Positions 21,197 through 64,000 of a stretch of DNA of 64,000 bases are shown here, piece by piece. How positions within the stretch are numbered: position 1 is the stretch's first letter; each line of letters opens with the position of its first letter. The notes below the pieces were generated by a model. That model was not told the DNA's origin. It did no database searches and was given only the letters and a program-made list of their open reading frames with translations. The DNA is from Enterobacter phage phiEap-3. Made by a program: the position numbers and the translations under genes. The stretch is from the sequence record KT321315.1; one strand, given 5' to 3'.

Positions 21197-22765
21197 ATGT
21201 CTAAGAAAAACGAATTGATGGAAAAATGGAACGATCTTCTGGAGTCTCAGGAAGGCTTACCGGATATCGCTACCAAATCCAAAAAACAACTGATTGCTGC
21301 CATTATGGAAGCACAGGAAAAAGACGCAGAAGTTGATCCGGTTTACCGCGACGAGAAAATCGTTGAATCCTTCGGTGGTTTCCTGGCGGAAGCTGAAATT
21401 GCTGGTGACCACGGTTACGACGCAACCAAAATCGCTTCTGGTAACTCAAGCGGTGCTATTACCAACATCGGCCCTGCTGTAATCGGTATGGTTCGCCGTG
21501 CGATTCCTAACCTGATCGCGTTCGATATCTGCGGTGTTCAGCCTATGACTGGCCCTACTGGTCAGGTGTTCGCTCTCCGCGCAGTGTACGGCAAAGATCC
21601 GCTGGCTTCCGGTGCTAAAGAAGCATTCCATCCGATGTTCTCTCCGGATAGCATGTACTCCGGTCAGGGCGCGGCTCCGAGCAACGGCTTTACCGAACTG
21701 GCTTCCGGTACTGCGATCGCTGACGGCGCTATCGTGTTCCACGATTTCGTTGAAACTGGTCGTGTGTTCCTCCAGAACGTTTCTGGCGCTCCGGTTACTG
21801 TAACTGGTTCTACCGACGATGCTCTGGATGCTGCTGTTATCGCCGAACAGGAAAAAGGTACTCTGGCTGAAATTTCTTACGGTATGGCTACCAGTGTAGC
21901 AGAACTGCAAGAACAGTTCAACGGTTCTACTGGCAACCCGTGGAACGAAATGGGCTTCCGTATCGATAAGCAGGTTATCGAAGCACGTAGCCGCCAACTG
22001 AAAGCACAGTACTCTGTAGAACTGGCTCAGGATCTCCGCGCTGTTCACGGTATGGACGCTGACGCCGAACTGTCTGCTATTCTGGCAACCGAAATCATGC
22101 TGGAAATCAACCGCGAAATCGTTGACATGATCAACTATACCGCACAGGTTGGTAAAACTGGTTTCACTCAGACCGTTGGCTCTAAAGCTGGTGCGTTTGA
22201 CTTCCAGGATCCGATTGATGTTCGTGGCGCTCGTTGGGCTGGTGAAAGCTACAAAGCTCTGCTGATTCAGATCGACAAAGAAGCAAACGAAATCGCACGT
22301 CAAACTGGTCGTGGTGCTGGTAACTTCATCATCGCTTCCCGTAACGTGGTTTCCGCTCTGGCTCGTATCGATAGCGGTATCACTCCGGCAGGTCAAGGTC
22401 TCCAGAAGACTCTGAACGTTGACACCACTAAAGCAGTATTCGCTGGTGTTCTGGGTGGCGTGTATAAAGTATACATCGACCAGTATGCACGTGGTGATTA
22501 CTTCACCGTGGGTTACAAAGGCGATAACGAAATGGATGCTGGTATCTACTACGCTCCGTATGTTGCGCTGACCCCGCTGCGTGGTTCTGATCCGAAGAAC
22601 TTCCAGCCAGTAATGGGCTTCAAAACTCGTTACGGTGTAGGTATCAACCCGTTTGCGAACTCTCGCTCTCAGGCTCCGTCCGACCGTATCACTTCTGGTA
22701 TGATTACCAAAGAAATGTTCGGTAAAAACGCATACTTCCGTAAAGTATACGTTAAAGGGCTGTAA
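21197..22765 (+). CDS. 23: Major capsid protein gp23
   Basis: 522 aa versus 521 aa in T4. Strong codon bias typical of highly expressed genes. Followed by a strong terminator. Confidence 0.95.
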   Translation: MSKKNELMEKWNDLLESQEGLPDIATKSKKQLIAAIMEAQEKDAEVDPVYRDEKIVESFGGFLAEAEIAGDHGYDATKIASGNSSGAITNIGPAVIGMVRRAIPNLIAFDICGVQPMTGPTGQVFALRAVYGKDPLASGAKEAFHPMFSPDSMYSGQGAAPSNGFTELASGTAIADGAIVFHDFVETGRVFLQNVSGAPVTVTGSTDDALDAAVIAEQEKGTLAEISYGMATSVAELQEQFNGSTGNPWNEMGFRIDKQVIEARSRQLKAQYSVELAQDLRAVHGMDADAELSAILATEIMLEINREIVDMINYTAQVGKTGFTQTVGSKAGAFDFQDPIDVRGARWAGESYKALLIQIDKEANEIARQTGRGAGNFIIASRNVVSALARIDSGITPAGQGLQKTLNVDTTKAVFAGVLGGVYKVYIDQYARGDYFTVGYKGDNEMDAGIYYAPYVALTPLRGSDPKNFQPVMGFKTRYGVGINPFANSRSQAPSDRITSGMITKEMFGKNAYFRKVYVKGL

Positions 22766-22783
22766 TAGCCAACTTTTCCAAGA

Positions 22784-22808
22784 GGGAACCGCAAGGTTCC
22801 CTTTTTTA
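22784..22808 (+). terminator. Rho-independent terminator after gp23
   Basis: GGGAACC-GCAA-GGTTCCC followed by TTTTTT. Confidence 0.8.
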
Positions 22809-22811
22809 TTA

Positions 22812-22819
22812 CATAAATA
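22812..22819 (+). promoter_or_regulatory. Late-promoter-like CATAAATA (gene 24)
   Basis: 7/8 match located after the gp23 terminator and before gp24. Confidence 0.4.
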
Positions 22820-22852
22820 AAGAAAAGTTTGTCAATAACGCAGGAACATAAA

Positions 22853-28336: not shown

Positions 28337-28906
28337 ATGAACTTAAACCACGAATGTTTAAAAGATTTGAGCGATGGTAACGAAATTGGTAACGTTATTT
28401 TTCTTGATATCGATGGCGTTCTAAATAATATGCGGTGCATGAAATTTGGTGAACATATGGACATCGAATGCGCACGACACTTACGCCGGATAGTGAATCA
28501 CGCTAATTGTGATATCGTCATTTCCTCTACGTGGAGAATCGGCAACAGTACCCATAATCTACGTGAAATATTTTATCCGTGGGGATTGTATCGGATCATT
28601 GGTAAAACTTGCACCAACTTCCCTCATAGCACTGGAATGCGTGGTGATGAAATCAAGGCATGGATCGATACTTTCGGATGTAAAAACTATCTCATTCTTG
28701 ATGATGATACCGATATGCTTTCTTCACAAAAAGATCATTTTATTAAAACTGATGGGTTCGTTGGGTTGACCGAAGAACAATCCACTTATGCGATCCGTAA
28801 CATTTTCGGGGTTACTACTCCGTTTTGTCCTGAATGTAATGGGTATGGACGTGTTAACGGCTACGACAAATGCGGAACGTGTAACGGTAAAATACTCCGG
28901 CTATAA
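28337..28906 (+). CDS. HAD-superfamily phosphatase with C-terminal CxxC-x-CxxC zinc ribbon
   Basis: HAD motif I 'FLDIDGVLN', motif II 'VISSTW' and motif IV 'LILDDDTD'. The C-terminus is 'CPECNGYGRVNGYDKCGTCNGK'. Confidence 0.6.
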   Translation: MNLNHECLKDLSDGNEIGNVIFLDIDGVLNNMRCMKFGEHMDIECARHLRRIVNHANCDIVISSTWRIGNSTHNLREIFYPWGLYRIIGKTCTNFPHSTGMRGDEIKAWIDTFGCKNYLILDDDTDMLSSQKDHFIKTDGFVGLTEEQSTYAIRNIFGVTTPFCPECNGYGRVNGYDKCGTCNGKILRL

Positions 28907-28934: not shown

Positions 28935-29996
28935 ATGGCAATTCCTTCTGTAACAATTAGCGCCAACAAAAACGAACTTTTGATTGGCGAAACTTTGACC
29001 TTAGAGGTTGAAACTACTGAACTAGATCCGGGTGATGTGTTTCTGGCCTATCGTTGGCAAAAAGATGGTGTAGATATTCCAAGCGCAACCGCCGATACTT
29101 ACACAACTACTGTTGACGGTACAACTGCTGGCGATTATACCCTGATTTTAAAACACGGTGCTGATGAAGAATCAGCAACAGAAACCACGTCTGATACAAT
29201 CACCGTGACCACTTATCCTGTAATCGCATTTGGTACTGATTTACCTGCAACAAAATCTGTTGTTACTGGTAAAGAACTTACCCTGACTGTTGCGGTAACT
29301 GGCGGTAAAGCCCCGTATACCTACGTATGGAAACGCGGTTCTACTGTTGTTAGTGGTGATTCTGCAACCTTAACAATTAGCGCTGCTGCAAGTGGTGATG
29401 TTGGTTCATATACGGTAGAAGTGACGGATTCACTGGGTAACAGAAAAACTTCTGGTGCTTGTGCTGTTAGCGTTACGCCTGCTCTTGCATTTGATAAAAA
29501 CCTAAGCCCTACCTCTTCCGTAACACAGGATTCTGAATTGATCCTTAGTGTAACTGTATTGGGTGGTACTTCTCCTTATTCTTATGCATGGACTAAGGAT
29601 GATTCTCCGGTTGGCGACGATGCGGATACTCTTACCATAGCAAGTGCGGCTCTTGATGATGCAGGTTCGTATAAAGTTGTAGTCACTGATGCGAATTCAG
29701 ATACCATCACATCAACTGTATGTGTCGTAACTGTTAATCAAAATTCTGATGATCTCGTTTCTAAATGGACGGTTCACCCGATTCCGTGGCGTGATACCAG
29801 TTTTACCCCGATCGGTTATTGGGTACTTGATGAAATTCTGTATCAGAAAGCACAGGGTAAAGATTGGAAAACTGATTATGCTGATTACAAGTATAGTGAG
29901 GAAGTACAAACGATCCTGAAAGCGTTTATGGAAAATGGTGAATGTGAGATCCAGGATTCACGAAACGGTTATATTCATAAAATGAGTGAAATCTAA
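28935..29996 (+). CDS. hoc: Hoc (highly immunogenic outer capsid protein): three Ig-like repeats plus a C-terminal capsid-binding domain
   Basis: Three ~88-aa internal repeats with the 'YxWxKxG...D(S/A)GxYxVxVTD' Ig signature. TATAAATA late promoter at 28902. The domain architecture matches T4 Hoc. Confidence 0.8.
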   Translation: MAIPSVTISANKNELLIGETLTLEVETTELDPGDVFLAYRWQKDGVDIPSATADTYTTTVDGTTAGDYTLILKHGADEESATETTSDTITVTTYPVIAFGTDLPATKSVVTGKELTLTVAVTGGKAPYTYVWKRGSTVVSGDSATLTISAAASGDVGSYTVEVTDSLGNRKTSGACAVSVTPALAFDKNLSPTSSVTQDSELILSVTVLGGTSPYSYAWTKDDSPVGDDADTLTIASAALDDAGSYKVVVTDANSDTITSTVCVVTVNQNSDDLVSKWTVHPIPWRDTSFTPIGYWVLDEILYQKAQGKDWKTDYADYKYSEEVQTILKAFMENGECEIQDSRNGYIHKMSEI

Positions 29997-30821: not shown

Positions 30822-30848
30822 GGGAACCGCAATGGTTCCCTTTCTTTT
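30822..30848. terminator. Bidirectional terminator between convergent NT5C paralogues
   Basis: GGGAACC-GCAAT-GGTTCCC with AAAAAA on the 5' side and TTTCTTTT on the 3' side. Confidence 0.75.
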
Positions 30849-31311
30849 ACAATCTTTTTAATTCATCAAGCGCGGTTTTCTTATCACCAACAAAGAGGAT
30901 TGCTTTACCTCCTGCTTTTCTGAAAGGCAACACCGCTTTTGCCCGATCGTCAAACAGAATTCCTTTACCAGCGAATGCTGCTTTTTCATGGCTACTTTTA
31001 ACGTAGTGGAATTCTGGAACGTAACCCAATACTTTTTGTAATGCTTTACGTTTTTGTTCGGCAACACCGTCAGAATTGAATTTACCGACACTGGTTAGTA
31101 TTGCTACATCACCAAGTGTTCTTAAATGATGGAATAATTCAAATCCTTCTTTGATTGGTTCCAGATTTTCGTAGAAATCAGTTTTGGCAATTTTTGCTTT
31201 GCACTTTTTCAACTCATCTTCTGTCATCATCGAGGGTTCGCCATACATTGGCACAAATGAACCTTCCCAGTCGAACAATACACCATCCATATCAAAGAAA
31301 AACTTATTCAT
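30847..31311 (-). CDS. NT5C-like 5'(3')-deoxyribonucleotidase (HAD family), paralogue B
   Basis: Motif I 'FFFDMDGVLFDW', typical of the NT5C family. Shares the bidirectional terminator 30822-30848 with paralogue A. Confidence 0.6.
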   Translation of the reverse strand: MNKFFFDMDGVLFDWEGSFVPMYGEPSMMTEDELKKCKAKIAKTDFYENLEPIKEGFELFHHLRTLGDVAILTSVGKFNSDGVAEQKRKALQKVLGYVPEFHYVKSSHEKAAFAGKGILFDDRAKAVLPFRKAGGKAILFVGDKKTALDELKRL

Positions 31312-31360
31312 ATCAATTCCTCAGTTTGTGTATGCATACTATAATGTTTAATCATTAATG

Positions 31361-32200
31361 TCAACCCCAAGTGTCAGTTTTCGGTGCGTATGCTGCAACT
31401 TTAGCCACAATTTCCTTATCCAGTTCAGCTACCGATTTCTGAGGCTTACCACGGGCTTTAACTTTGATGTAGTTTGACTTAACAACAAACATACCTTTAT
31501 TGCTTGATTTCTTGATCTCGCTATCAACACCAACTTTGTTAAAGCTGATCCAAATATCGCCGTCCATATACTGTTTAAGAGAATCACCCATGTTCAGGAT
31601 CTTCGCCATAGTAAGGGCCGCGCCTTCGTGGGTATCCATGAGAATTTCTTTAGGAACTACACGATCGCGTTTCTGGTTCTGCTGCATAGCAATATGCACA
31701 TCGTTCATAACCCATACGATATGTACGTTTTCTTTCTTGTATCCCAGCTTTTCGACATCACGCGCGATACTTGCCAGCTTGCTCATACCTTTTAACGTTA
31801 CGTCAAAGATGAGGTTAGGTTTACGATCTTCTGGTGCTGCCATAATACCGGAATAAACACGGTTTTGGTTTTTGTTGGAAATGTTGAAAACGTCGGCGAT
31901 CACATGATGGAGGGTAGATACGTTTTCTGGGTTTTTGAGGTTCATTGTTTTGACATCATGGCCCGTTTGTTTCTTGATCTCTGCTGCGAGTTTATCGCTA
32001 CCCATTACAAGTTTTTTCAGGGCGTCAACGTCCAGGGTGATACCTTCGATGCCTAGCAGTTTTTCCAGTGTGAAACCTTTACCGGAACCAGCACCGCCAG
32101 CCAGAATAACAACCTGACCAAACTTAGGATAAGCACGGCCCCCGAAGGTGATCAGCGCTTCGGTTAAGGTGCTTTCTGTGAATTGTTTAAATGACTTCAT
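31361..32200 (-). CDS. P-loop NTPase / nucleotide-kinase-like protein
   Basis: Walker A 'ILAGGAGSGKG' (adenylate-kinase-like GxxGxGKG) and Walker B-like 'LIFDVT'. 279 aa. Confidence 0.5.
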   Translation of the reverse strand: MKSFKQFTESTLTEALITFGGRAYPKFGQVVILAGGAGSGKGFTLEKLLGIEGITLDVDALKKLVMGSDKLAAEIKKQTGHDVKTMNLKNPENVSTLHHVIADVFNISNKNQNRVYSGIMAAPEDRKPNLIFDVTLKGMSKLASIARDVEKLGYKKENVHIVWVMNDVHIAMQQNQKRDRVVPKEILMDTHEGAALTMAKILNMGDSLKQYMDGDIWISFNKVGVDSEIKKSSNKGMFVVKSNYIKVKARGKPQKSVAELDKEIVAKVAAYAPKTDTWG

Positions 32201-34921: not shown

Positions 34922-35941
34922 ATGTTTAAGAAATATTCTTCTCTGACTAACCATTATGAAGGTAAGTTCATCAATGGTGTAATTATGAACGGGCTTACTG
35001 GCGGTGTGTGGGTTGCGCGTGAAAAGATCCACGGTGCTAACTTTAGCTTTATCACCGATGACGGTATTACCGTTACCCCCGCAAAGCGTACTGATGTTGT
35101 TAAGCCAGCCGAAGATTTTTATGGCTGTTCAGCAGTAGTTGCAAAGTATTCCCCAGGGATCCGTAAGATGTGGGAAACCCTCAAAAAGACCGGAACTTAT
35201 GATGATTTGGTTATTCAAGTCTACGGTGAATTTGCGGGGCGCGGTGTACAGAAAGATGTTGATTACGGCGAAAAAGATTTCTATGTATTCGATATCCGTG
35301 TAAATGGTGAATTCCTTCCGGATAACCTGTGCTCGCTAATCTCTCGATCTCATGGCCTGAAAATGGCCCCGCTGTTGGGATATGGTACTTTTGAAGAGAT
35401 CAAAGAACTGCCGATCACGTTTGAATCCGTTGTGAATAAAGCAAATAGCGGCATTGGTAGCGATAATACAGTATATGGTGAATTCGTATATCCTATCATG
35501 GAAGTTGAAGAGGGAAACATTGCAGAAGGTTTTGTAATGAAACCTGTTTCACCTGCTTTTATGCCAAACGGTGAACGCGTTGCAATCAAATGCAAAACAA
35601 CCAAATTCACTGAGAAGAAAGCGAAGAAAGCAACCCGCTTTAATGCTCCGGTTTCACTGTCAGAAAAAGACAAAAACCAACTCGATGAGTTTGTTTGTTA
35701 CCTTACAGAGAACCGTGTGAAAAACGTTCTTTCGAAACTGGATCTGGCTTCGATCACTGCGAAAGATTTCGGTCGCATTATGGGCTTAACGGTTCAGGAT
35801 GCTATTGAAGAAATCAGCCGTAATCATGGGCCTTTCCTCGAACAGTTCGAAGACCCAGCAATGGCTAAAAAGCTGTTTGTAACCGAAGCCCAAAACATGA
35901 TTCGCCCTGTATGGGGCAAAATCCTGAACCATGAATTTTAA
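34922..35941 (+). CDS. rnlB: RNA ligase 2 (RnlB)
   Basis: 339 aa versus 334 aa in T4. The N-terminus 'MFKKYSSLTNHYEGKF...GGVWVAREKIHGANFS' is near-identical to T4 Rnl2 and includes the KxHG adenylylation motif. 'GLTVQD' is conserved. Confidence 0.9.
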   Translation: MFKKYSSLTNHYEGKFINGVIMNGLTGGVWVAREKIHGANFSFITDDGITVTPAKRTDVVKPAEDFYGCSAVVAKYSPGIRKMWETLKKTGTYDDLVIQVYGEFAGRGVQKDVDYGEKDFYVFDIRVNGEFLPDNLCSLISRSHGLKMAPLLGYGTFEEIKELPITFESVVNKANSGIGSDNTVYGEFVYPIMEVEEGNIAEGFVMKPVSPAFMPNGERVAIKCKTTKFTEKKAKKATRFNAPVSLSEKDKNQLDEFVCYLTENRVKNVLSKLDLASITAKDFGRIMGLTVQDAIEEISRNHGPFLEQFEDPAMAKKLFVTEAQNMIRPVWGKILNHEF

Positions 35942-36512
35942 TCAGATTCTGGTTGATGCAAAAGCGGCTACCCTGATCGGTAGCCGTAAACCTCCTGAAC
36001 GTATCGCAAACATTGCTGTTAAAATCGGACGTGCTTTGAACGAACGCGGGATCAGGGCTTATTCTGGCGGCGCTCCTGGTATGGATAGTCACTTTCTGTT
36101 TGACTATAGTCCGGATAACAGGTGTATAATCCTTCCTGAGAACGGTTTTAACGGCCTTTTCTCAAACGGAAAGGATATCATCGACTTTCGAGATTTAAAC
36201 ACACAGAAAGCCGCTGACGAAGCCAGAAAGGTAGCAGGTAACTTCGATACACAGAATGAATACGTTCAAAGAAGGTATGCGCGAAACACGATTCAAGTTC
36301 TTCGTGAAAATCTTGACAATCCAACTGACTTTGTTTTATTTTGGGCGGAAGAACGTGAAGGATGTGTTAAAGGTGGAACCGCGATCGCTGTAAGATTGGC
36401 TAGGTTGTACAGGGTTCCATGTTTCAATCTCTTCAAAGAAAGTGTATTGAACGATGTGTGTGATACGTTAGGGATTAATATCAAACCCCCAACGTTGGAT
36501 TTTTTATGGTAA
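35931..36512 (+). CDS. DprA/Smf-like (SLOG superfamily) Rossmann-fold protein
   Basis: 'LIGSRKPPERIANIAVKIGRALNERGIRAYSGGAPGMDS' matches the GSR...SGGAxGxD signature of DprA/SLOG. Overlaps the rnlB 3' end. Confidence 0.5.
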   Translation: MNFNQILVDAKAATLIGSRKPPERIANIAVKIGRALNERGIRAYSGGAPGMDSHFLFDYSPDNRCIILPENGFNGLFSNGKDIIDFRDLNTQKAADEARKVAGNFDTQNEYVQRRYARNTIQVLRENLDNPTDFVLFWAEEREGCVKGGTAIAVRLARLYRVPCFNLFKESVLNDVCDTLGINIKPPTLDFLW

Positions 36513-37030: not shown

Positions 37031-37107
37031 AAAGGTGTTGACGGGGGTTGGTTATAGTAGTATTCTAACTCCCGTAGACAAGACACTAACTCAGAAGGAT
37101 AAACATC

Positions 37108-37368
37108 ATGGAAATCGTAATGAAAGCAACTTATGCTGGATATTGCCTGGAAGCAAAAGGTGTTGCTAACAATGGCAAAGGCTTACGGGCCAATGTTGAA
37201 GCAATGCTGGATGAATTACATGCAATGTACGAATACGACAACGTAGCGGGTAGCGTTCTTATCCAGACGTTGGAAGTTGATGGTGTTGATTGTGCTGGTT
37301 GGTGGGATGCTTACATTGACTACAACGATAACCGGGTTTACCTGTTGAGCAACAAAGATTATTTCTAA
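37108..37368 (+). CDS. Hypothetical protein
   Basis: 86 aa. AAGGATAAACATCATG ribosome-binding site. Confidence 0.4.
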   Translation: MEIVMKATYAGYCLEAKGVANNGKGLRANVEAMLDELHAMYEYDNVAGSVLIQTLEVDGVDCAGWWDAYIDYNDNRVYLLSNKDYF

Positions 37369-37377
37369 GGAACCACT

Positions 37378-37827
37378 ATGAGCGATGAAGCTGAGGCTTT
37401 AGAAGATTGGGCTGATTTTGATGACGAAGAAGACGGGGAATATTTCTGCGTTAACAGTGGTGCTTACAAAGACCGTTTAGAACTTCGTGAACTTTTATCC
37501 GGTTCCTCTCAAATATCAGGATCCAAACGAAAAAGTAGTAAACAAAAAGTTCAATATAGTGATGGTTCTGTACGTGATGAAACCGTTGTTGCTGAATTTC
37601 GTGGTCGGGTTATCACAAAAGAACGACAAATTGATGTAAAGAACTTGTATGAAGTGGCTAAGGCTGCTAAAATAGGTTCTGTGATTGTTTGCCCTGTGTG
37701 CAAAGAAAAACACACAAAGACAACGTATCACAAAGTTTTCTGTTCGAATGGCAGAAAAACCAGTAAGGATTGTAAGTCTAAATATCACAATACAATCCAT
37801 CCCGAACGACTGGATCGGGTATTTTAA
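37378..37827 (+). CDS. Hypothetical protein (acidic N-terminus, C-terminal CPVC...C zinc-ribbon-like)
   Basis: 149 aa. AAGGAACCACTATG ribosome-binding site. Confidence 0.45.
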   Translation: MSDEAEALEDWADFDDEEDGEYFCVNSGAYKDRLELRELLSGSSQISGSKRKSSKQKVQYSDGSVRDETVVAEFRGRVITKERQIDVKNLYEVAKAAKIGSVIVCPVCKEKHTKTTYHKVFCSNGRKTSKDCKSKYHNTIHPERLDRVF

Positions 37828-37854
37828 AATAAACTTAAAACGTGGAGTACGTTT

Positions 37855-39288
37855 ATGAACAACAAAACTTTCGAAGAACTGAACAGCATCATCACTTCCG
37901 TAGATTCCTATAAGGTTTCTCACTGGTCGCAATATCCAACTGGCTCCGAAGAGGCGCTGTTTTATATTGAATCTCGTGGTGGTAAATTTGATCAAGTAGT
38001 TACGGCTGGCTGTAACCGCCTTGCGCAAATCCTATCACGTCCGGTGACTATGGAAAACGTAGATTTTGCTAATCGGTTGTACAAAATGCACTTTGGGCGT
38101 GAAATCTTCAACTACAAAGGTTGGAAAGAAATTGCAGAACTGGGTTACATCCCTCTTGAATTCAGAGCGATTCCGGAAGGAACCCCAGTAGCGGTTAAAA
38201 ATCCGGTTGCAACTTTCCATGCTGGGAAAAATGCGCTGTGGTTAGCAGGACACGTAGAAACCCTGGCGATCAGGGGAGTATGGTTCCCTTCAACCGTAGC
38301 AACGCTATCCCGCGAATGTAAAAAAGTGTTGAAGAAATATCTCAAGAAAACCTCCGATCTCGAAGGTGAAGCATTTGATATGGTATTACGTACCCGTTTG
38401 CATGACTTCGGCGCACGTGGAACCTCTTCTGCTGAATCTGCTGGTATTGGTGGCCTCGCGCACCTGTATAACTTCCTCGGTACTGATACCGTAGAAGCGC
38501 TGATTATGGCTATCTCTCTGTTTGAAGATTGTCAGAAAGCGTTTGATGATGGTGAAATGGCGGCTGGTATTTCAATTCCTGCTCGCGAACATTCCACTAC
38601 CGTTTCTTACGGCAAAGAAAACGAAGACCTTGCATACAAAAACAGTATTGAGATCTTCGGTGAAGGGATGTATGCATGTGTGTATGATTCCTGGGATTTT
38701 AAAGCGGCGGTTCGCCGTATCGCAGAATATAAAGATTCTATTCTTTCTAAGGGCGGTACTCTGGTAGTTCGTCCGGATTCTGGTGATATGGTAGACAATA
38801 TCATGTACGCTCTTGAAGAACTGGGCCGTATCTTTGGCTATACAGTGAACTCAAAAGGGTATAAAGTACTACACCCAGCAGTAAGGATCATTCAAGGCGA
38901 TGAAATTCATGGCCCTGAAACAATCAATCGGGTGTTGAACTGGATGGAGTCTAACCGTTGGGCGTCTGAAAACATCGCGTTCGGTATGGGCGGCGGATTG
39001 CTTCAAGAAGTTACCCGCGATACTCAAAAATATGCGATGAAAATGTGCGCAATCAAAATTAACGGTGTGTGGACTGGTGTTTATAAATGTCCAAAAGGCG
39101 CTGAATGGAAAAAGAGTAAAAAAGGGTTGTTGATGACTATCACTGATGGTGTTAACTTTAAAACCATTGATACTCTGGAACAGAAAGTGCCGGAAGGCTG
39201 GAAAGATGCTATGATCACATACTATGTCAACGGAAAGATTACTGCCCGTGACACTTTAGAGGAAATTAGGAACCGTGCCGGGATTTAG
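37855..39288 (+). CDS. nadV: Nicotinamide phosphoribosyltransferase (NadV/NAMPT)
   Basis: 477 aa. 'HDFGARG', 'GTDT', 'RPDSGD' and 'GMGGGLLQ' are signatures of the NAMPT/NAPRTase family. Confidence 0.85.
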   Translation: MNNKTFEELNSIITSVDSYKVSHWSQYPTGSEEALFYIESRGGKFDQVVTAGCNRLAQILSRPVTMENVDFANRLYKMHFGREIFNYKGWKEIAELGYIPLEFRAIPEGTPVAVKNPVATFHAGKNALWLAGHVETLAIRGVWFPSTVATLSRECKKVLKKYLKKTSDLEGEAFDMVLRTRLHDFGARGTSSAESAGIGGLAHLYNFLGTDTVEALIMAISLFEDCQKAFDDGEMAAGISIPAREHSTTVSYGKENEDLAYKNSIEIFGEGMYACVYDSWDFKAAVRRIAEYKDSILSKGGTLVVRPDSGDMVDNIMYALEELGRIFGYTVNSKGYKVLHPAVRIIQGDEIHGPETINRVLNWMESNRWASENIAFGMGGGLLQEVTRDTQKYAMKMCAIKINGVWTGVYKCPKGAEWKKSKKGLLMTITDGVNFKTIDTLEQKVPEGWKDAMITYYVNGKITARDTLEEIRNRAGI

Positions 39289-39577
39289 TATCCGCAAAAA
39301 CGACAAAGGAACCGTGATTTTCTATGACAACATGCCCCTTGTAGCTCGCAAGGGGCTTTTTGCTAAAATCGCTGGGTATTCCTTTAAACTGGAAGAAGTC
39401 AACGACGAAACACTAAAAGAGATCGTAAGAATTGCCTTACAGTTAAGAGGTAAGAAAGACGAACAAAGAGCTATTGACATGATCAATAAATTGGGCGAAA
39501 CTCAATGCTTCATAGTGAATCGTGGTTACAAGTACGATACCATTGCAAAATTTGAAAAAGGGCTTTGTGAATTATGA
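39275..39577 (+). CDS. Hypothetical protein
   Basis: 100 aa. Overlaps the nadV 3' end and is ATGA-coupled to dam. Confidence 0.4.
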   Translation: MPGFSIRKNDKGTVIFYDNMPLVARKGLFAKIAGYSFKLEEVNDETLKEIVRIALQLRGKKDEQRAIDMINKLGETQCFIVNRGYKYDTIAKFEKGLCEL

Positions 39578-45161: not shown

Positions 45162-45377
45162 TTGTCAACTAAGGAGGATGTTATGAAAATCAAAAACACT
45201 GCTACTGAAACTCTTTGCAACGAAATTGCAGAAATGTACTGGAGTAAAGGTCACTTAGAGGCTATGAAAGAGTTTCAAAAGTGGTGTGATACCCAAAAGT
45301 TAGCTAAATGGGAATACATCGTTATTGTTGAACGGATCAAAGAACTGATCCTCGTGAAGAAAGGTAACATGAAATGA
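45162..45377 (+). CDS. Hypothetical protein
   Basis: 71 aa. Sigma70-like promoter 45128-45156. TAAGGAGGATGTTATG ribosome-binding site. Confidence 0.4.
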   Translation: MSTKEDVMKIKNTATETLCNEIAEMYWSKGHLEAMKEFQKWCDTQKLAKWEYIVIVERIKELILVKKGNMK

Positions 45378-45901
45378 TTCAACTGAAATTAGACACAAAT
45401 GCGGTGTTAAGCCTGTTTCCAGAAGGTTCAACCGCTCGCGTAGATCTCCAATCTGCTATCATCAAAAACGTGGTGAATAGCGTAGTTGGTAAGCGTGTTA
45501 GCGAAGAAATCAACAAACGGATCCAGGAACAGTTAGCTGTTCTAATGCCGAACTCATCCGAAATTACACAGGTCATCAAATCTGAATTCTCGGATTACGT
45601 CGAAAAACGTTATGGGTATTCTAATGTTTTCGATGTCAATTATGGCAATGTTCGCGAACTGTCTGGTAAAATCAAAGAATCGGTAAAACAGCAATGCCAA
45701 ACCATTCTTAAAGATATCGAGAAAGAGGCGATTGCTCATGCAACAGAAAACATTATTGCAGACGAAGCCGCGTTTATCGCTCGCGTCTCTAATCACCTGG
45801 AAGTTACTGTACGCAAAGCAGTAATGCAACGGGTTAACACTCAGTTCCCAGACATTATTGACGAAGCGATCAGAGAACGTCTGTTTGGTGAAAAAGCATG
45901 A
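45374..45901 (+). CDS. Hypothetical protein
   Basis: 175 aa. ATGA-coupled to nrdG. Confidence 0.45.
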   Translation: MIQLKLDTNAVLSLFPEGSTARVDLQSAIIKNVVNSVVGKRVSEEINKRIQEQLAVLMPNSSEITQVIKSEFSDYVEKRYGYSNVFDVNYGNVRELSGKIKESVKQQCQTILKDIEKEAIAHATENIIADEAAFIARVSNHLEVTVRKAVMQRVNTQFPDIIDEAIRERLFGEKA

Positions 45902-57300: not shown

Positions 57301-58554
57301 GGCGCGTTGATTATTTCTGCTAAAGCAGGTCAAGCAATTTATCTGCGACCGCAAGGTGATACATCCAGCACAAACGAAACCCGTATTGATTCAAACGGTA
57401 GTATCACGGTTAACGGCAATATTAACGCTAACGGTACATTAACTTGTACTGGCGGTGCTGTTAACGGTGAACTTACTGTTAACAACGTTGGCCCGATCCT
57501 GAAAAAAGGTGTTAGAACTTATGCAGATGGTTCAGTAACTGTTAATGAAACCGACGGCATCAAGATGTTTGGCAACGGTACTATATCTGGTACTATGAGA
57601 TTAGTTGAACGTGTTAACGATACTACGTTTATTGGTCTTCAAACATCGCTTAATGCAGATACCAATGGTTGGTTTGAGTTTCACCATAACGGGATGCTTC
57701 GAGCAAACCATGCGGAACTGACAACAGGTCTTCGTGTTAAAGGTTCTCCGATTATTCAGCCAACAAGCGACAACAATGCTTGGGCGTCTATTAACTTTAG
57801 ACATACTGACGGTACTACAAATCGTGGTATTTTGTTTGCTGATGCTGCTGGTAATATCGGGTTTAGTAATATAAACGGTAAAAACGTTATATGGAACACT
57901 GGTAACTACTTTATCATTCAGCAAGGCGAACTGAACGTTGGTGTTAACAACGGTGGTACTGGTGAAGGTAACGAAGATAGAAACAAAGCCAACTTCTACA
58001 ACAAAGGTTCTATTGATTGCGCAGGTACACGCGCATATCAAGATACAAACGATAATAATCGTTGGGTTCGTGAAGTTCGTGGCGTAAGACATCTTATGCA
58101 AGGAACTGATCTTGGTTCTGAAAACATATTTGTTGAACGTGTTGGACAGCGCCATTTCCATATGCTTCATGTATTTGGGGCTAACAGTAATGGTTGGTTT
58201 GAATTCCGTAATAATGGTGATATGTCGTGTAACGGTACGTTGTACGCACAGGATGTTTATATAACTTCCGATAAACGACACAAACGTAATATCACTAAAG
58301 TTGAAAGCTCCGAAGAAATTTTGAGCAAAATGTCAGCTTATAATTACGAAGTTCGAGATCCTACAGCAGATGATGCATGGACAAAAGCAACGGGGCTTAT
58401 TGCTCAGGAAGTTCAGGAAGTTCTTCCTACTGCTGTTGATGATTCAGATCCTGAACATATTCGCTTGAACTATAACGCGATTGTTGCGGTTCTTGTAGAA
58501 CAGGTCAACAAGTTAACTGCTAAAGTTAATGAACTTGAAAGAAAACTTAATTAA
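54370..58554 (+). CDS. 37: Long tail fibre distal subunit gp37 with C-terminal S74 intramolecular chaperone domain
   Basis: The N-terminus 'MADLAKIQFLRSTVAGKTPT...ADGELAINMADY' is gp37-like. The C-terminal ~100 aa 'SDKRHKRNI...GLIAQEVQEVLP...LNYNAIVAVLVEQVNKL' match the endosialidase / T5-pb1 type self-cleaving chaperone. Confidence 0.9.
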   Translation: MADLAKIQFLRSTVAGKTPTTSQLADGELAINMADYAIYTKNGSSIVQLAGKGIPETNTKKLTVNGPSALNDTVTVAEGKTITFTNADLSGGMVRHITGKNALNDGWYIGSGGESNKGFLEIGTIDDGDEEIRFVSRGSGDTVRRTLKLIDSGGNTRVPGNIYIDEAMGGAGSAFISKSKAYFGAGGADIYMRNTAGGATNQLTITDGGELLFQAKPVYWDGRKPTLTELGIGRVENARQLEQDNFPVTTGNETRWIKVALLKDPASGQSRLQLMVTNGGNYGSTRSSIDFIDCTARSIPATLTSGNVRSYLQVRRLGDTAIDNVNQMRYSLVRTSEGLELWFTQRAFIGGVKVALLSIAGGAATEYYLPTGYTISATAPEGLVESVVIRIYDEMNKPNLDDGTDGILSVAKGGTGASTAAAARTNLGLGTAATRDVGTGSGQVMLVGAYGLGGKGTSYTVSNARDYLKQLRTDGSQFMRNTLGTEINYGMGASFYSSVSDVHAVISVDWNTGRVKVGATNDANLNSDTGKISSQELYGTAFKPTPDDVGAVARTGDGMTGDLSITKVSPGFHLNAESGNSVIWFKYKGVESGAVWALPNTASSGEVRIRARTSGGTTGGEFSFKSDGTFTSPGNINITYGAFNGRTVNTSYANFNNTSSTTTEQTVSISGSQHTPLLLNRPTNSNLSIGFKLSGMNMKRLGIDVNGDIRYGEAENQTQNAWLLTSDTINRWSVNFGRDINVAGVVNSTGGFAGPVTAYDLTGVTQDLDALTLNNAEPGHIKVYSCRSMGGGDNITNKPSGVGGNFIVIVECLRKVGDTDYTNRQVLRASDNKRSWERWFTVSGTAKAWTPWRMNVVSGNDDDVSFKSVTTTTGNLNSGNDLIVANNARVGGNLGLGGASSTTYTDKGVVIGNGSALLETTDGRVIIGSSGAGRAVELRPGGPTQTNNGIKVTATSGSGGDTAIEYAQGAKIRSNNGGALIISAKAGQAIYLRPQGDTSSTNETRIDSNGSITVNGNINANGTLTCTGGAVNGELTVNNVGPILKKGVRTYADGSVTVNETDGIKMFGNGTISGTMRLVERVNDTTFIGLQTSLNADTNGWFEFHHNGMLRANHAELTTGLRVKGSPIIQPTSDNNAWASINFRHTDGTTNRGILFADAAGNIGFSNINGKNVIWNTGNYFIIQQGELNVGVNNGGTGEGNEDRNKANFYNKGSIDCAGTRAYQDTNDNNRWVREVRGVRHLMQGTDLGSENIFVERVGQRHFHMLHVFGANSNGWFEFRNNGDMSCNGTLYAQDVYITSDKRHKRNITKVESSEEILSKMSAYNYEVRDPTADDAWTKATGLIAQEVQEVLPTAVDDSDPEHIRLNYNAIVAVLVEQVNKLTAKVNELERKLN

Positions 58555-58574
58555 GGGGCTTCGGCCCCTTTTCG
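58555..58574 (+). terminator. Rho-independent terminator after gp37
   Basis: GGGGC-TTCG-GCCCC followed by TTTT. Confidence 0.7.
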
Positions 58575-58585
58575 GAGGTTAACTA

Positions 58586-59113
58586 ATGGCTATTTCCGGC
58601 CCACTAGTTGGAAGTTCGGCGGTTAATGAAACTGGACAACGATCCATGATTCAAGCTGCTGCCGTCGTTCGACTCGGTACACCGTTTTATATGTCTCAAT
58701 TAATTGGGCGTAGCAAATGGCATTTTACTTTTGTTCCCCAGGAACGTTGGTATAACAACACTCGTTGGCGTGGTGTTTGGCGTAAAGGCGCTGATACTAA
58801 CGTATGGTACAACATTTCTGACTCTGCTTATACTATTGTTGGTGATTATAACGGTAAGCAAATAGGTACTATTGGCGCCGTTGGTGATGTAATAGAAAAC
58901 GGGTCTAACTTAACTATTTTTGATGGTCCAAATAGAAATGTTCGCATTCTCTTCACTCGTGTAGATAATAATCAACAATGGACGTTTGATTTCAGGATAT
59001 CAAGTTATATGCGTGATGGATTCAGAAACTATGATGCAATGAGTAGAGATTGGTATGGATTCTTGAATGCTAATGTGGGTGTTACTATTTCCGGAATCAT
59101 TACTGAGATCTAA
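58586..59113 (+). CDS. Hypothetical protein in gp38 position (not T4- or T2-type gp38)
   Basis: 175 aa. GGAGGT ribosome-binding site. Lies between gp37 and t. No Gly-rich adhesin motifs and no similarity to T4 gp38. Confidence 0.5.
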   Translation: MAISGPLVGSSAVNETGQRSMIQAAAVVRLGTPFYMSQLIGRSKWHFTFVPQERWYNNTRWRGVWRKGADTNVWYNISDSAYTIVGDYNGKQIGTIGAVGDVIENGSNLTIFDGPNRNVRILFTRVDNNQQWTFDFRISSYMRDGFRNYDAMSRDWYGFLNANVGVTISGIITEI

Positions 59114-59120
59114 TTTTTAA

Positions 59121-62269: not shown

Positions 62270-62707
62270 TCAATATGGTTGAAATTCAAAATCATAAATG
62301 TCATTCAGTGCGCGGTTCCACTCGGTGTAGTTTTCACCAGCACCATAACGCATTTGAATAGCACTTTCGAACGTTGATCCGTTAAGGTTCGGGAAACCGA
62401 ACAGGTTTTTGATTTTGTCATGTGCTACATAGTACAGAGAAGCACTTTCCAGCATCGCAACCATCGCAGACGGTTCGTGTTCGCGGCGCTTGATACGTAA
62501 CAGAGTACGACTAGCGCCAGTTTTACGGCGTTGATTTGGTGCTACGTAGAAACGGAATACTACGCGCCCTGTTTTATCATCAACTACCAGGTAAAACCCG
62601 TTTTCTTTCAGATCCACGCCTTCGAATTTCTTGAAGGTTCCGCGTTTCATGTCACCAATTTTAATTGCATATTTGTGAATGTCAAGTCTTGTCAGAATTC
62701 TTTTCAT
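62270..62707 (-). CDS. ndd: Ndd-like nucleoid disruption protein
   Basis: 145 aa versus ~151 aa in T4. 'GFYLVV..KTGR', 'FYVAPNQRRKTG...RIKRRE' and the C-terminus '..F.F.QPY' parallel T4 Ndd as recalled. Lies next to rIIB as in T4. Confidence 0.45.
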   Translation of the reverse strand: MKRILTRLDIHKYAIKIGDMKRGTFKKFEGVDLKENGFYLVVDDKTGRVVFRFYVAPNQRRKTGASRTLLRIKRREHEPSAMVAMLESASLYYVAHDKIKNLFGFPNLNGSTFESAIQMRYGAGENYTEWNRALNDIYDFEFQPY

Positions 62708-63101: not shown

Positions 63102-64000
63102 TTAGTAATGGCTAAAACCATAGGTAACATCAATCATGACTTTATAACGGCATACACGCATTTTTGCGTTATTGTAATCCACTGGGATCGCTACTACGTC
63201 AGCAGGATCCACCTTTACCTGAATGACTCTACCAATACCGCCCCCGTAATGTGGAAGGTATGATTTAGCCGCAACGTGTAGGCCAGTAGAACAGGTGCGC
63301 GTTTTATCTTCGTCTACCATGTTTCGAGGCATGGATACAGTCACACCAGGACTATTATCAAATTTGCCAGTCGCGAGATCTTTATAGTTATCGCGTACAC
63401 GTTTCCAGGCAAGAAAACAACCATCATCGGTCAGTTCAATGTCATTATGTACAAGGAACCCGTAAAGCTGGTATACCGCATCGCGTGAAGGGTTTCGCAT
63501 CAACCGTTCAAAGAAGTTTACCAGGTGTTCATACGGACGATCGTTATACATTTCGCGAATGATTCGTTGAGTGATATCAGAATCAAACACTACATCTTTA
63601 TATAGAAGCTGATGACCAATGATTTTAATGTTGCCTTTGCTATAGGTTCGGATCGCTTCCTGAGTATCCAAACAACGCACCGCGCCTTTAACATCACCAG
63701 CTTTCAACATTTCATGCGCTTTCTTAAAGTTCGGATGTGTTTCACCCGCCATGAAAACGCGCCCTTCGTATACAACCGTAATGAACGATTCAGAACCGAT
63801 CATACGCGGTACAGTGTCTGATACTTTAGGCTTTTGTTTTACGTCCCTTTTCTTCGGGAACTCCGCTAACTTGCGGTTGATAACGCGCCCAATGGTTCGG
63901 GCGCTTACGTTGAACTGTTGGGCCAGTGCTGTTTTACTTGCCCCCGTCAACCATCCATTATAGATAGCTTTCTGTTGTACTTCGTCAAGAATTTTGACCA
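63102..64000 (-). CDS. rIIB: rIIB (lysis-inhibition / Rex-exclusion protein), N-terminus outside window
   Basis: 'NPSRDAVYQLYGFLVHNDIELTDDGCFLAWKRVRDNY', 'TCSTGLHV' and 'DYNNAKMRVCRYKV' are collinear with the T4 rIIB C-terminal half. The frame is open to the window edge. Confidence 0.85.
   Translation of the reverse strand, partial: VKILDEVQQKAIYNGWLTGASKTALAQQFNVSARTIGRVINRKLAEFPKKRDVKQKPKVSDTVPRMIGSESFITVVYEGRVFMAGETHPNFKKAHEMLKAGDVKGAVRCLDTQEAIRTYSKGNIKIIGHQLLYKDVVFDSDITQRIIREMYNDRPYEHLVNFFERLMRNPSRDAVYQLYGFLVHNDIELTDDGCFLAWKRVRDNYKDLATGKFDNSPGVTVSMPRNMVDEDKTRTCSTGLHVAAKSYLPHYGGGIGRVIQVKVDPADVVAIPVDYNNAKMRVCRYKVMIDVTYGFSHY

Follow-up and report, generated by a model that had tools for sequence, protein, structure and literature searches.

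The 64-kb stretch of phage DNA analyzed here (hereafter, the window) carries, at positions 37855–39288 of its forward strand, an open reading frame (ORF) that runs intact from ATG to stop and encodes a protein of 477 amino acids. From the ORF listing and from matches to Pfam, NCBIfam, and PHROG, this gene, nadV, is predicted to encode a nicotinamide phosphoribosyltransferase, specifically the Nampt of the NAD+ pathway termed NARP2. The original prediction had assigned a NAMPT-family enzyme to the same interval; its coordinates prove exact, and the motifs that it named (HDFGARG, GTDT, and RPDSGD) are found at residues 183–189, 209–212, and 306–311, together with the matching domains and the residue that specifies nicotinamide. 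The N-terminal NAMPT domain (PF18127, NAMPT_N; E = 2.6e-22, 79.4 bits against a cutoff of 25) spans 37888–38139 on the forward strand, or residues 12–95, and includes Tyr19, the equivalent of human Tyr18. The catalytic phosphoribosyltransferase barrel (PF04095, NAPRTase; E = 6.9e-41, 141 bits against a cutoff of 20.8) follows on the same strand at 38395–39132, or residues 181–426, as delimited by Pfam and by alignment to human NAMPT (3dgr). Over residues 10–475 the protein also scores above the cutoff of the NadV-type NCBIfam model NF006629 (463.7 bits against 405), and its PHROG assignment is 448, 'nicotinamide phosphoribosyl transferase' (E = 7.6e-166). ORFs that lie antisense to nadV, or within it in alternative frames, lack any PHROG match and are taken to be spurious.

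Comparison with solved structures places the protein in the same family. E-values against NAMPT structures reach 2.9e-104, and each of the 32 PDB chains matched at E < 1e-10 bears the name NAMPT or pre-B cell enhancing factor related protein in its deposition; the top match, 7yqo ('Pre-B cell enhancing factor related protein'), scores 352.8 bits, and human NAMPT approximately 295. The two-domain architecture of human NAMPT (2GVJ, 3DGR) and of 7YQO is common to the phage protein, which shares 40.5% identity with human NAMPT over 452 aligned positions, the distinction being that NadV is here encoded by a phage, in contrast to the cellular NAMPT and NadV enzymes. In the human structures, Tyr18 and Phe193 stack against the ring, Asp219 recognizes the amide group of nicotinamide, and autophosphorylation of His247 couples ATP hydrolysis to the reaction; Arg196, Arg311, Asp313, Gly353–Asp354, Gly383–Gly384, and Arg392 are ligands of PRPP or phosphate. 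Every one of these residues is kept in the phage enzyme, with Tyr18, Phe193, Arg196, Asp219, and His247 mapping to Y19, F185, R188, D211, and H246, and the remaining ligands, in the order given from Arg311 onward, mapping to R306, D308, G348–D349, G379–G380, and R388. Outside this set, Ser275 of human NAMPT is Ala274 in the phage protein.

A ribosome-binding site (GGAG, 37845–37848, forward strand) can be read 6 nt 5′ of the ATG, and two small ORFs, probably co-transcribed with nadV, lie upstream on the same strand: one of 86 amino acids at 37108–37368 (PHROG 7372), and one of 149 amino acids at 37378–37827 (PHROG 7424), the latter with a Cys/His-rich C-terminus. The 77-nt gap 5′ of these ORFs contains a promoter-like site (TTGACG-17 nt-TATTCT, 37038–37066, forward strand), of a kind that a consensus scan finds no more commonly in the window than in shuffled sequence; the site coincides in position with a 'putative middle promoter' annotated in Klebsiella phage KP15, and no MotA box (TGCTT) is visible at it. 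Past the nadV stop codon by 46 nt, a terminator-like hairpin occupies 39334–39356 of the forward strand, with a 9-bp stem that includes six G-C pairs and is followed by a T-run (fold −25.4 kcal/mol, z = −2.33). The hairpin possibly closes the transcription unit, or it may regulate the next ORF; no known RNA family is found across the whole 64-kb window. The 86- and 149-residue ORFs were considered as possible members of an NAD+ pathway and rejected, as they adjoin nadV only in closely related Pseudotevenvirus, a neighborhood taken to be plain synteny, and do not occur in its vicinity in Aeromonas phage 25 or Vibrio phage D484. Genes of nucleotide metabolism, namely dam, nrdC, gene 49, nrdD, nrdG, and nrdH, also lie around nadV.

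Judged by its sequence, the window is Slopekvirus (Straboviridae), of the T4-like KP15 group of Klebsiella phages. DNA of the nadV region is 99.3–99.5% identical to that of many Klebsiella Slopekvirus phages, KP15 included (99.3%), and over 25 kb it is PSKm2DI, the closest relative, that matches best, with a DNA identity of 99.0%. At the protein level the NadV of the window is 100% identical to that of KP15 (KP15_212, ADE35043.1), which GenBank annotates as 'NadV; NAmPRT; part of pyridine nucleotide (NAD+) salvage pathway'. From approximately 111.5 kb onward the KP15 record aligns collinearly with the window; past the end of the record the alignment runs on into its start, such that window positions 63102–64000 correspond to KP15 positions 1–899, as would be expected of a circularly permuted genome. 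KP15 and the window share the gene order RnlB, DprA-like, three small ORFs, nadV, a small ORF, dam, nrdC, gene 49, and nrdD, and differ in that segD is absent from the window and that the hoc and tail-fiber regions diverge. The gene, its partner, and the pathway are already described, through the GenBank annotation, the NARP2 listing of Osterman et al., and the recognition of the trait as genus-wide in Slopekvirus, the nicotinamide-to-NAD+ salvage enzymes having been reported in all Klebsiella Slopekvirus phages (PLoS One, 2025). The paper on the KP15 and KP27 genomes does not mention an NAD+ salvage pathway.

The original prediction held that NatV, the bifunctional partner of NadV, was not to be found in the window and should lie elsewhere or be provided by the host; the absence is borne out, and so is a location elsewhere, the latter in the relatives KP15 and PSKm2DI. 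Within the window, tblastn with KP15 NatV returns nothing better than E = 3.7, neither the Nudix box nor the GxFxPxHxGH motif occurs once in the six reading frames, and Pfam scans of 28 window ORFs detect no CTP_transf_like, NUDIX, NadR, PnuC, Prs, or ART domain. In the KP15 genome, natV (nadM, KP15_110) occupies 75999–77060 of the minus strand, approximately 72 kb from nadV, which lies on the opposite strand. Its product comprises an N-terminal CTP_transf_like and a C-terminal NUDIX domain (Pfam), with HYGH at residue 18 and a Nudix box in which the catalytic REllEE is intact; its alignment to the bifunctional NadM/Nudix models covers their full length (E = 3e-76), at a score under their strict equivalog cutoffs, as would be expected of a diverged phage copy. 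PSKm2DI likewise carries an intact natV, encoding 352 amino acids at 96.6% identity and again approximately 72 kb from nadV, and by its position in these relatives the natV of this isolate would be expected outside the 64-kb window. Across a phage collection searched at a DNA identity of at least 95%, nadV and natV are each recovered in 111 records. The two proteins have also diverged to a similar extent between KP15 and Aeromonas phage 25 (52% identity for NadV, 50% for NatV), in keeping with parallel divergence; in the latter genome only 3.7 kb separates their genes, which share a strand and precede gene 49 and nrdD. This arrangement fits a scenario in which nadV and natV were once linked and later became separated in Slopekvirus and Pseudotevenvirus.

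Assignment to a particular pathway depends on the subgroup of NadV-like proteins to which the enzyme belongs. Osterman et al. divide those of phages into Adps-linked Namat (NARP1, approximately 80%) and a minority Nampt clade (NARP2), report that 94% of the phages carrying Nampt also encode Nmnat, and found no phage carrying both NARP1 and NARP2. The broader statement in the original prediction, that phage NadV normally pairs with NatV, needs to be narrowed: it stands for the Nampt clade, including KP15, and fails for the approximately 80% of homologs that are Adps-linked Namat. The KP15 protein is entered in the supplementary table of Osterman et al. as 'Nmnat-associated', that is, NARP2, and the enzyme of the window is a Nampt of this Nmnat-associated clade, not of the Adps-associated one. 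It is 52–53% identical to the NadV proteins of Aeromonas phage 25, where the gene is natV-linked, and of Vibrio phage D484, and only 29% identical to the Prs-linked homolog of Bacillus phage BPS10C. With the BPS10C Prs-like protein as query, tblastn gives no hit at E ≤ 1 in either KP15 (1–171989) or the window, and Pfam detects no Prs domain among the neighbors of nadV. The components of a further pathway, NARP3 (PnuC and NadR), are absent both from the 28 window ORFs, by Pfam, and from the annotated genes of KP15.

The NadV and NatV pair of Vibrio phage KVP40 was reportedly described by Lee, Li and Miller in 2017. Osterman et al. (2024) demonstrated that this NARP2 pair makes NAD+ and abolishes both type I Thoeris and DSR2 defense, that NARP2 raises NAD+ even in defense-free cells, and that the KVP40 operon is toxic in E. 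coli; the KVP40 ortholog has been shown to produce NMN from nicotinamide and PRPP. The earlier proposal that a NadV/NatV pathway can neutralize Thoeris and DSR systems is in this way substantiated for the KVP40 pair (type I Thoeris and DSR2). The KVP40 and KP15-like proteins represent the same two enzyme families, the same predicted chemistry, and the same Nmnat-associated clade. However, the KVP40 pair was handled as one operon (Osterman et al., 2024), whereas the Slopekvirus genes lie approximately 72 kb apart on opposite strands, and it is for KVP40 only that activity and counter-defense have been demonstrated. In the present comparison the NadV of Vibrio phage D484 (253 kb), approximately 53% identical to that of the window, stands in for KVP40 NadV; the stretch of KVP40 from 195 to 245 kb holds structural genes only and no NadV.

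We consider it very likely that nadV is the NadV/Nampt of a KP15-like Slopekvirus and that, together with NatV, it constitutes a NARP2 pathway that would sustain NAD+ against NAD+-cleaving defenses. In such a pathway, NadV would convert nicotinamide and PRPP to NMN, with ATP-dependent autophosphorylation of His246 as the probable driving force, and the bifunctional NMN adenylyltransferase/Nudix enzyme NatV (NadM) would then combine NMN with ATP to yield NAD+. The PRPP would be supplied by the host, because a phage Prs was not found. In addition, the Nudix portion of NatV may split ADP-ribose into AMP and ribose-5-phosphate, as its resemblance to bacterial NadM/Nudix enzymes suggests, and the ribose-5-phosphate could return to PRPP via the host Prs. 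The expected benefit to the phage is an NAD+ pool that would be held, or even raised, during infection, potentially allowing replication in spite of NAD+ cleavage by SIR2, TIR, or SEFIR-type effectors.

It is also conceivable, if doubtful, that the Slopekvirus NARP2 forms part of a wider and dispersed NAD+/ADP-ribose toolkit, rather than a stand-alone two-gene operon. Members of such a toolkit may include the Nudix half of NatV, acting in PRPP recycling; the DprA-like protein of the SLOG superfamily encoded three genes upstream of nadV (window 35931–36512); the macro-domain protein Tk.4; and NudE. Breakdown of immune signals derived from ADP-ribose is a possible role for these last three. If this were the case, the two products released by NADase effectors would both be dealt with by the split pathway, which would also blunt signaling of the Thoeris type.

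The NARP2 assignment has to be set against alternatives that concern the reaction itself. Many GenBank records label NadV homologs 'nicotinate phosphoribosyltransferase', a name that model NF006629 also bears, and a PncB-like enzyme acting on nicotinate might be supposed on that account. However, NadV possesses the NAMPT-specific N-terminal domain; its D211 corresponds to human Asp219, the amide-recognizing residue; the 32 solved relatives mentioned above were all deposited under NAMPT-type names (NAMPT or pre-B cell enhancing factor related protein); and against the PncB-type model NF006696 it scores 23 bits, with a cutoff of 503. We regard the 'nicotinate' label as a naming artifact because the amide-recognizing Asp is conserved and the PncB-type score is far below cutoff, and a PncB-like product as extremely improbable. 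A similarly negligible probability can be given to a Namat of the NARP1 type, which would join nicotinamide and ADPR-pyrophosphate (ADPR-PP) to form NAD+ in one step. Such an activity is suggested by the homology of Namat and Nampt, by the preponderance of Namat (approximately 80%) among phage homologs, and by the weak activity of KVP40 Nampt on ADPR-PP in vitro; the NARP1 Namat enzymes (of Bas63, SPbetaL1, and the BPS10C homolog) have a fold homologous to that of NadV, and GenBank names both 'nicotinamide phosphoribosyl transferase'. But Namat is partnered by Adps, whereas Slopekvirus NadV is partnered by Nmnat, with no Adps gene adjacent to it or anywhere in KP15. Membership in NARP1 was rejected on this ground: in neither KP15 nor the window does tblastn reveal an Adps/Prs-like gene that could provide ADPR-PP. 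The same conclusion is favored by the tabulation of the identical KP15 protein as Nmnat-associated, by the failure to find any phage that carries NARP1 together with NARP2, and by the gradient of identities, 29% to the Prs-linked homolog as against 40.5% to human NAMPT and 52–53% to NadV of Aeromonas phage 25 and D484.

With a NARP2-type Nampt as the preferred assignment, alternatives remain as to the use to which the NAD+ is put. T4-like phages classically ADP-ribosylate host proteins, and the NAD+ might feed transferases of the phage itself that modify host RNA polymerase, in the manner of T4 Alt, ModA, and ModB. Use of NAD+ by ADP-ribosyltransferases is indeed proposed in a paper on Slopekvirus (PLoS One, 2025). 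For this lineage, however, the idea was rejected: tblastn finds no homolog of Alt, ModA, or ModB in KP15 (1–171989) or the window, with the Srd and gp30 ligase controls detected in the same searches, and no ART domain is present in 10 large unannotated KP15 proteins or in the 28 window ORFs. T4 itself, moreover, has these transferases and is not known to carry nadV. We consider a role in supplying such enzymes highly unlikely. More serious consideration is due to the possibility, still somewhat unlikely in our view, that nadV is an auxiliary metabolic gene without a specific anti-defense role, providing NAD(P) for nucleotide and redox metabolism; the chemistry would be unchanged, and such a role may coexist with counter-defense. 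The phage encodes its own ribonucleotide reductases, thioredoxin/glutaredoxin, DHFR, and thymidylate synthase, genes of nucleotide metabolism surround nadV, NARP2 lifts NAD+ in infected cells free of defense systems, and these enzymes have been called auxiliary metabolic genes (PLoS One, 2025). Yet the consumption of PRPP by NARP2, together with the toxicity of the KVP40 operon, suggests a cost that would need a strong benefit, and the KVP40 pair abolishes Thoeris and DSR2 defense fully.

Deletion data from a close relative bear on the choice between counter-defense and plain metabolism. A 2026 paper reports that deletion of nadM in the KP15-like phage vB_KP_P4, with nadV intact and without complementation, reduced host range from 109 strains to 5. 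The same deletion lowered the efficiency of plating (EOP) to 0.142 on the sole strain of the plating assays, as a purely metabolic role might lead one to expect, but the loss of host range was far greater than the loss of EOP on that strain. Deletion of the dCMP deaminase or of a clamp-loader gene in vB_KP_P4 gave almost the same phenotype (2026 paper). The effect of the nadM deletion may be one on general fitness, rather than on counter-defense, because the other deletions look alike, EOP fell as well, and complementation was not included. The result fits a counter-defense role for the NadV and NatV pathway, which we continue to favor, and is non-specific with respect to it. KP15-like phages are broad-host-range candidates for phage therapy against Klebsiella, a breadth that may be due in part to NAD+ reconstitution. 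The genome of vB_KP_P4 (176,180 bp, 41.8% G+C) has a gap of 176 bp before nadM, as is found at positions 77061–77236 of KP15.

Three genes upstream of nadV (window 37855-39288, plus strand) lies a plus-strand ORF of 193 aa (35931-36512), directly 3' of RNA ligase 2 (34922-35941), and the same arrangement around this ORF is kept in Enterobacter phage Taquito. The encoded protein matches PHROG 768, a phage protein family described as DprA-like, at E=2.3e-60, and has a weak match to Pfam DNA_processg_A; because of these two matches, we place it in the SLOG superfamily. Viral SLOG proteins have been predicted to target ADP-ribose-derived signals (Iyer et al., 2022).

Further ADP-ribose-handling genes are present in the genome of Klebsiella phage KP15, the same genome that carries natV (KP15_110), and both lie outside the window: a stand-alone macro-domain protein, Tk.4 (KP15_116; positions 30495-30968 of L003, a stretch of the KP15 genome with its own coordinates; Macro E=5e-7; ThsA_Macro is also matched, weakly), and NudE (KP15_147; L003 47116-47523), a Nudix hydrolase that likewise stands alone. 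The immediate upstream neighbor of natV, also outside the window, is KP15_111 (L003 27237-28163), an SPFH/Band-7 family protein (E=4e-19); this is a membrane-scaffold family and is unusual in phage.

In the records of phages CPRSB (OM971649) and phT4A (KX130727), nadV and/or natV are annotated in two or three pieces. The fragments involve length differences of 1-3 bases, and may represent either sequencing errors or natural pseudogenes.

A strong plus-strand hairpin followed by a T-run (39334-39356) lies 46 nt past the nadV stop and abuts the ATG at 39332 that KP15's annotators picked as the start of the following ORF. The PHROG profile favors a longer, 100-aa version of this ORF, which begins with GTG at 39275 and overlaps the stop codon of nadV. 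The hairpin may serve either in termination or in the control of translation.

A minus-strand pair of adjacent genes (30847-32200), flanked by plus-strand blocks, encodes a Zeta-toxin-like P-loop kinase of 279 aa (Pfam E=9.5e-8) and a 154-aa NT5C-type 5'-nucleotidase (PHROG 2643, 5'-3' deoxyribonucleotidase). A 189-aa plus-strand ORF (28337-28906), annotated as hypothetical in KP15, contains HAD_SAK_2 (E=3.5e-29), the HAD domain found in RNA-repair proteins of the "Swiss Army Knife" type, as well as a C-terminal CxxC zinc-ribbon-like segment. Two other hypothetical proteins give weak, sub-threshold hints of PIN_12 (45374-45901, plus strand; E=8.7e-5) and of the T4 Ndd nuclear disruption protein (62270-62707, minus strand; E=8e-4).

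The window differs from KP15 at three places. Between gp23 and gp24 it has no SegD homing endonuclease (22758-22838); it carries about 520 additional bases in the hoc region (29220-29743), which forms a single 353-aa Ig-domain ORF (28935-29996); and the distal part of the large tail-fiber gene (57479-59119) has no megablast match to KP15.
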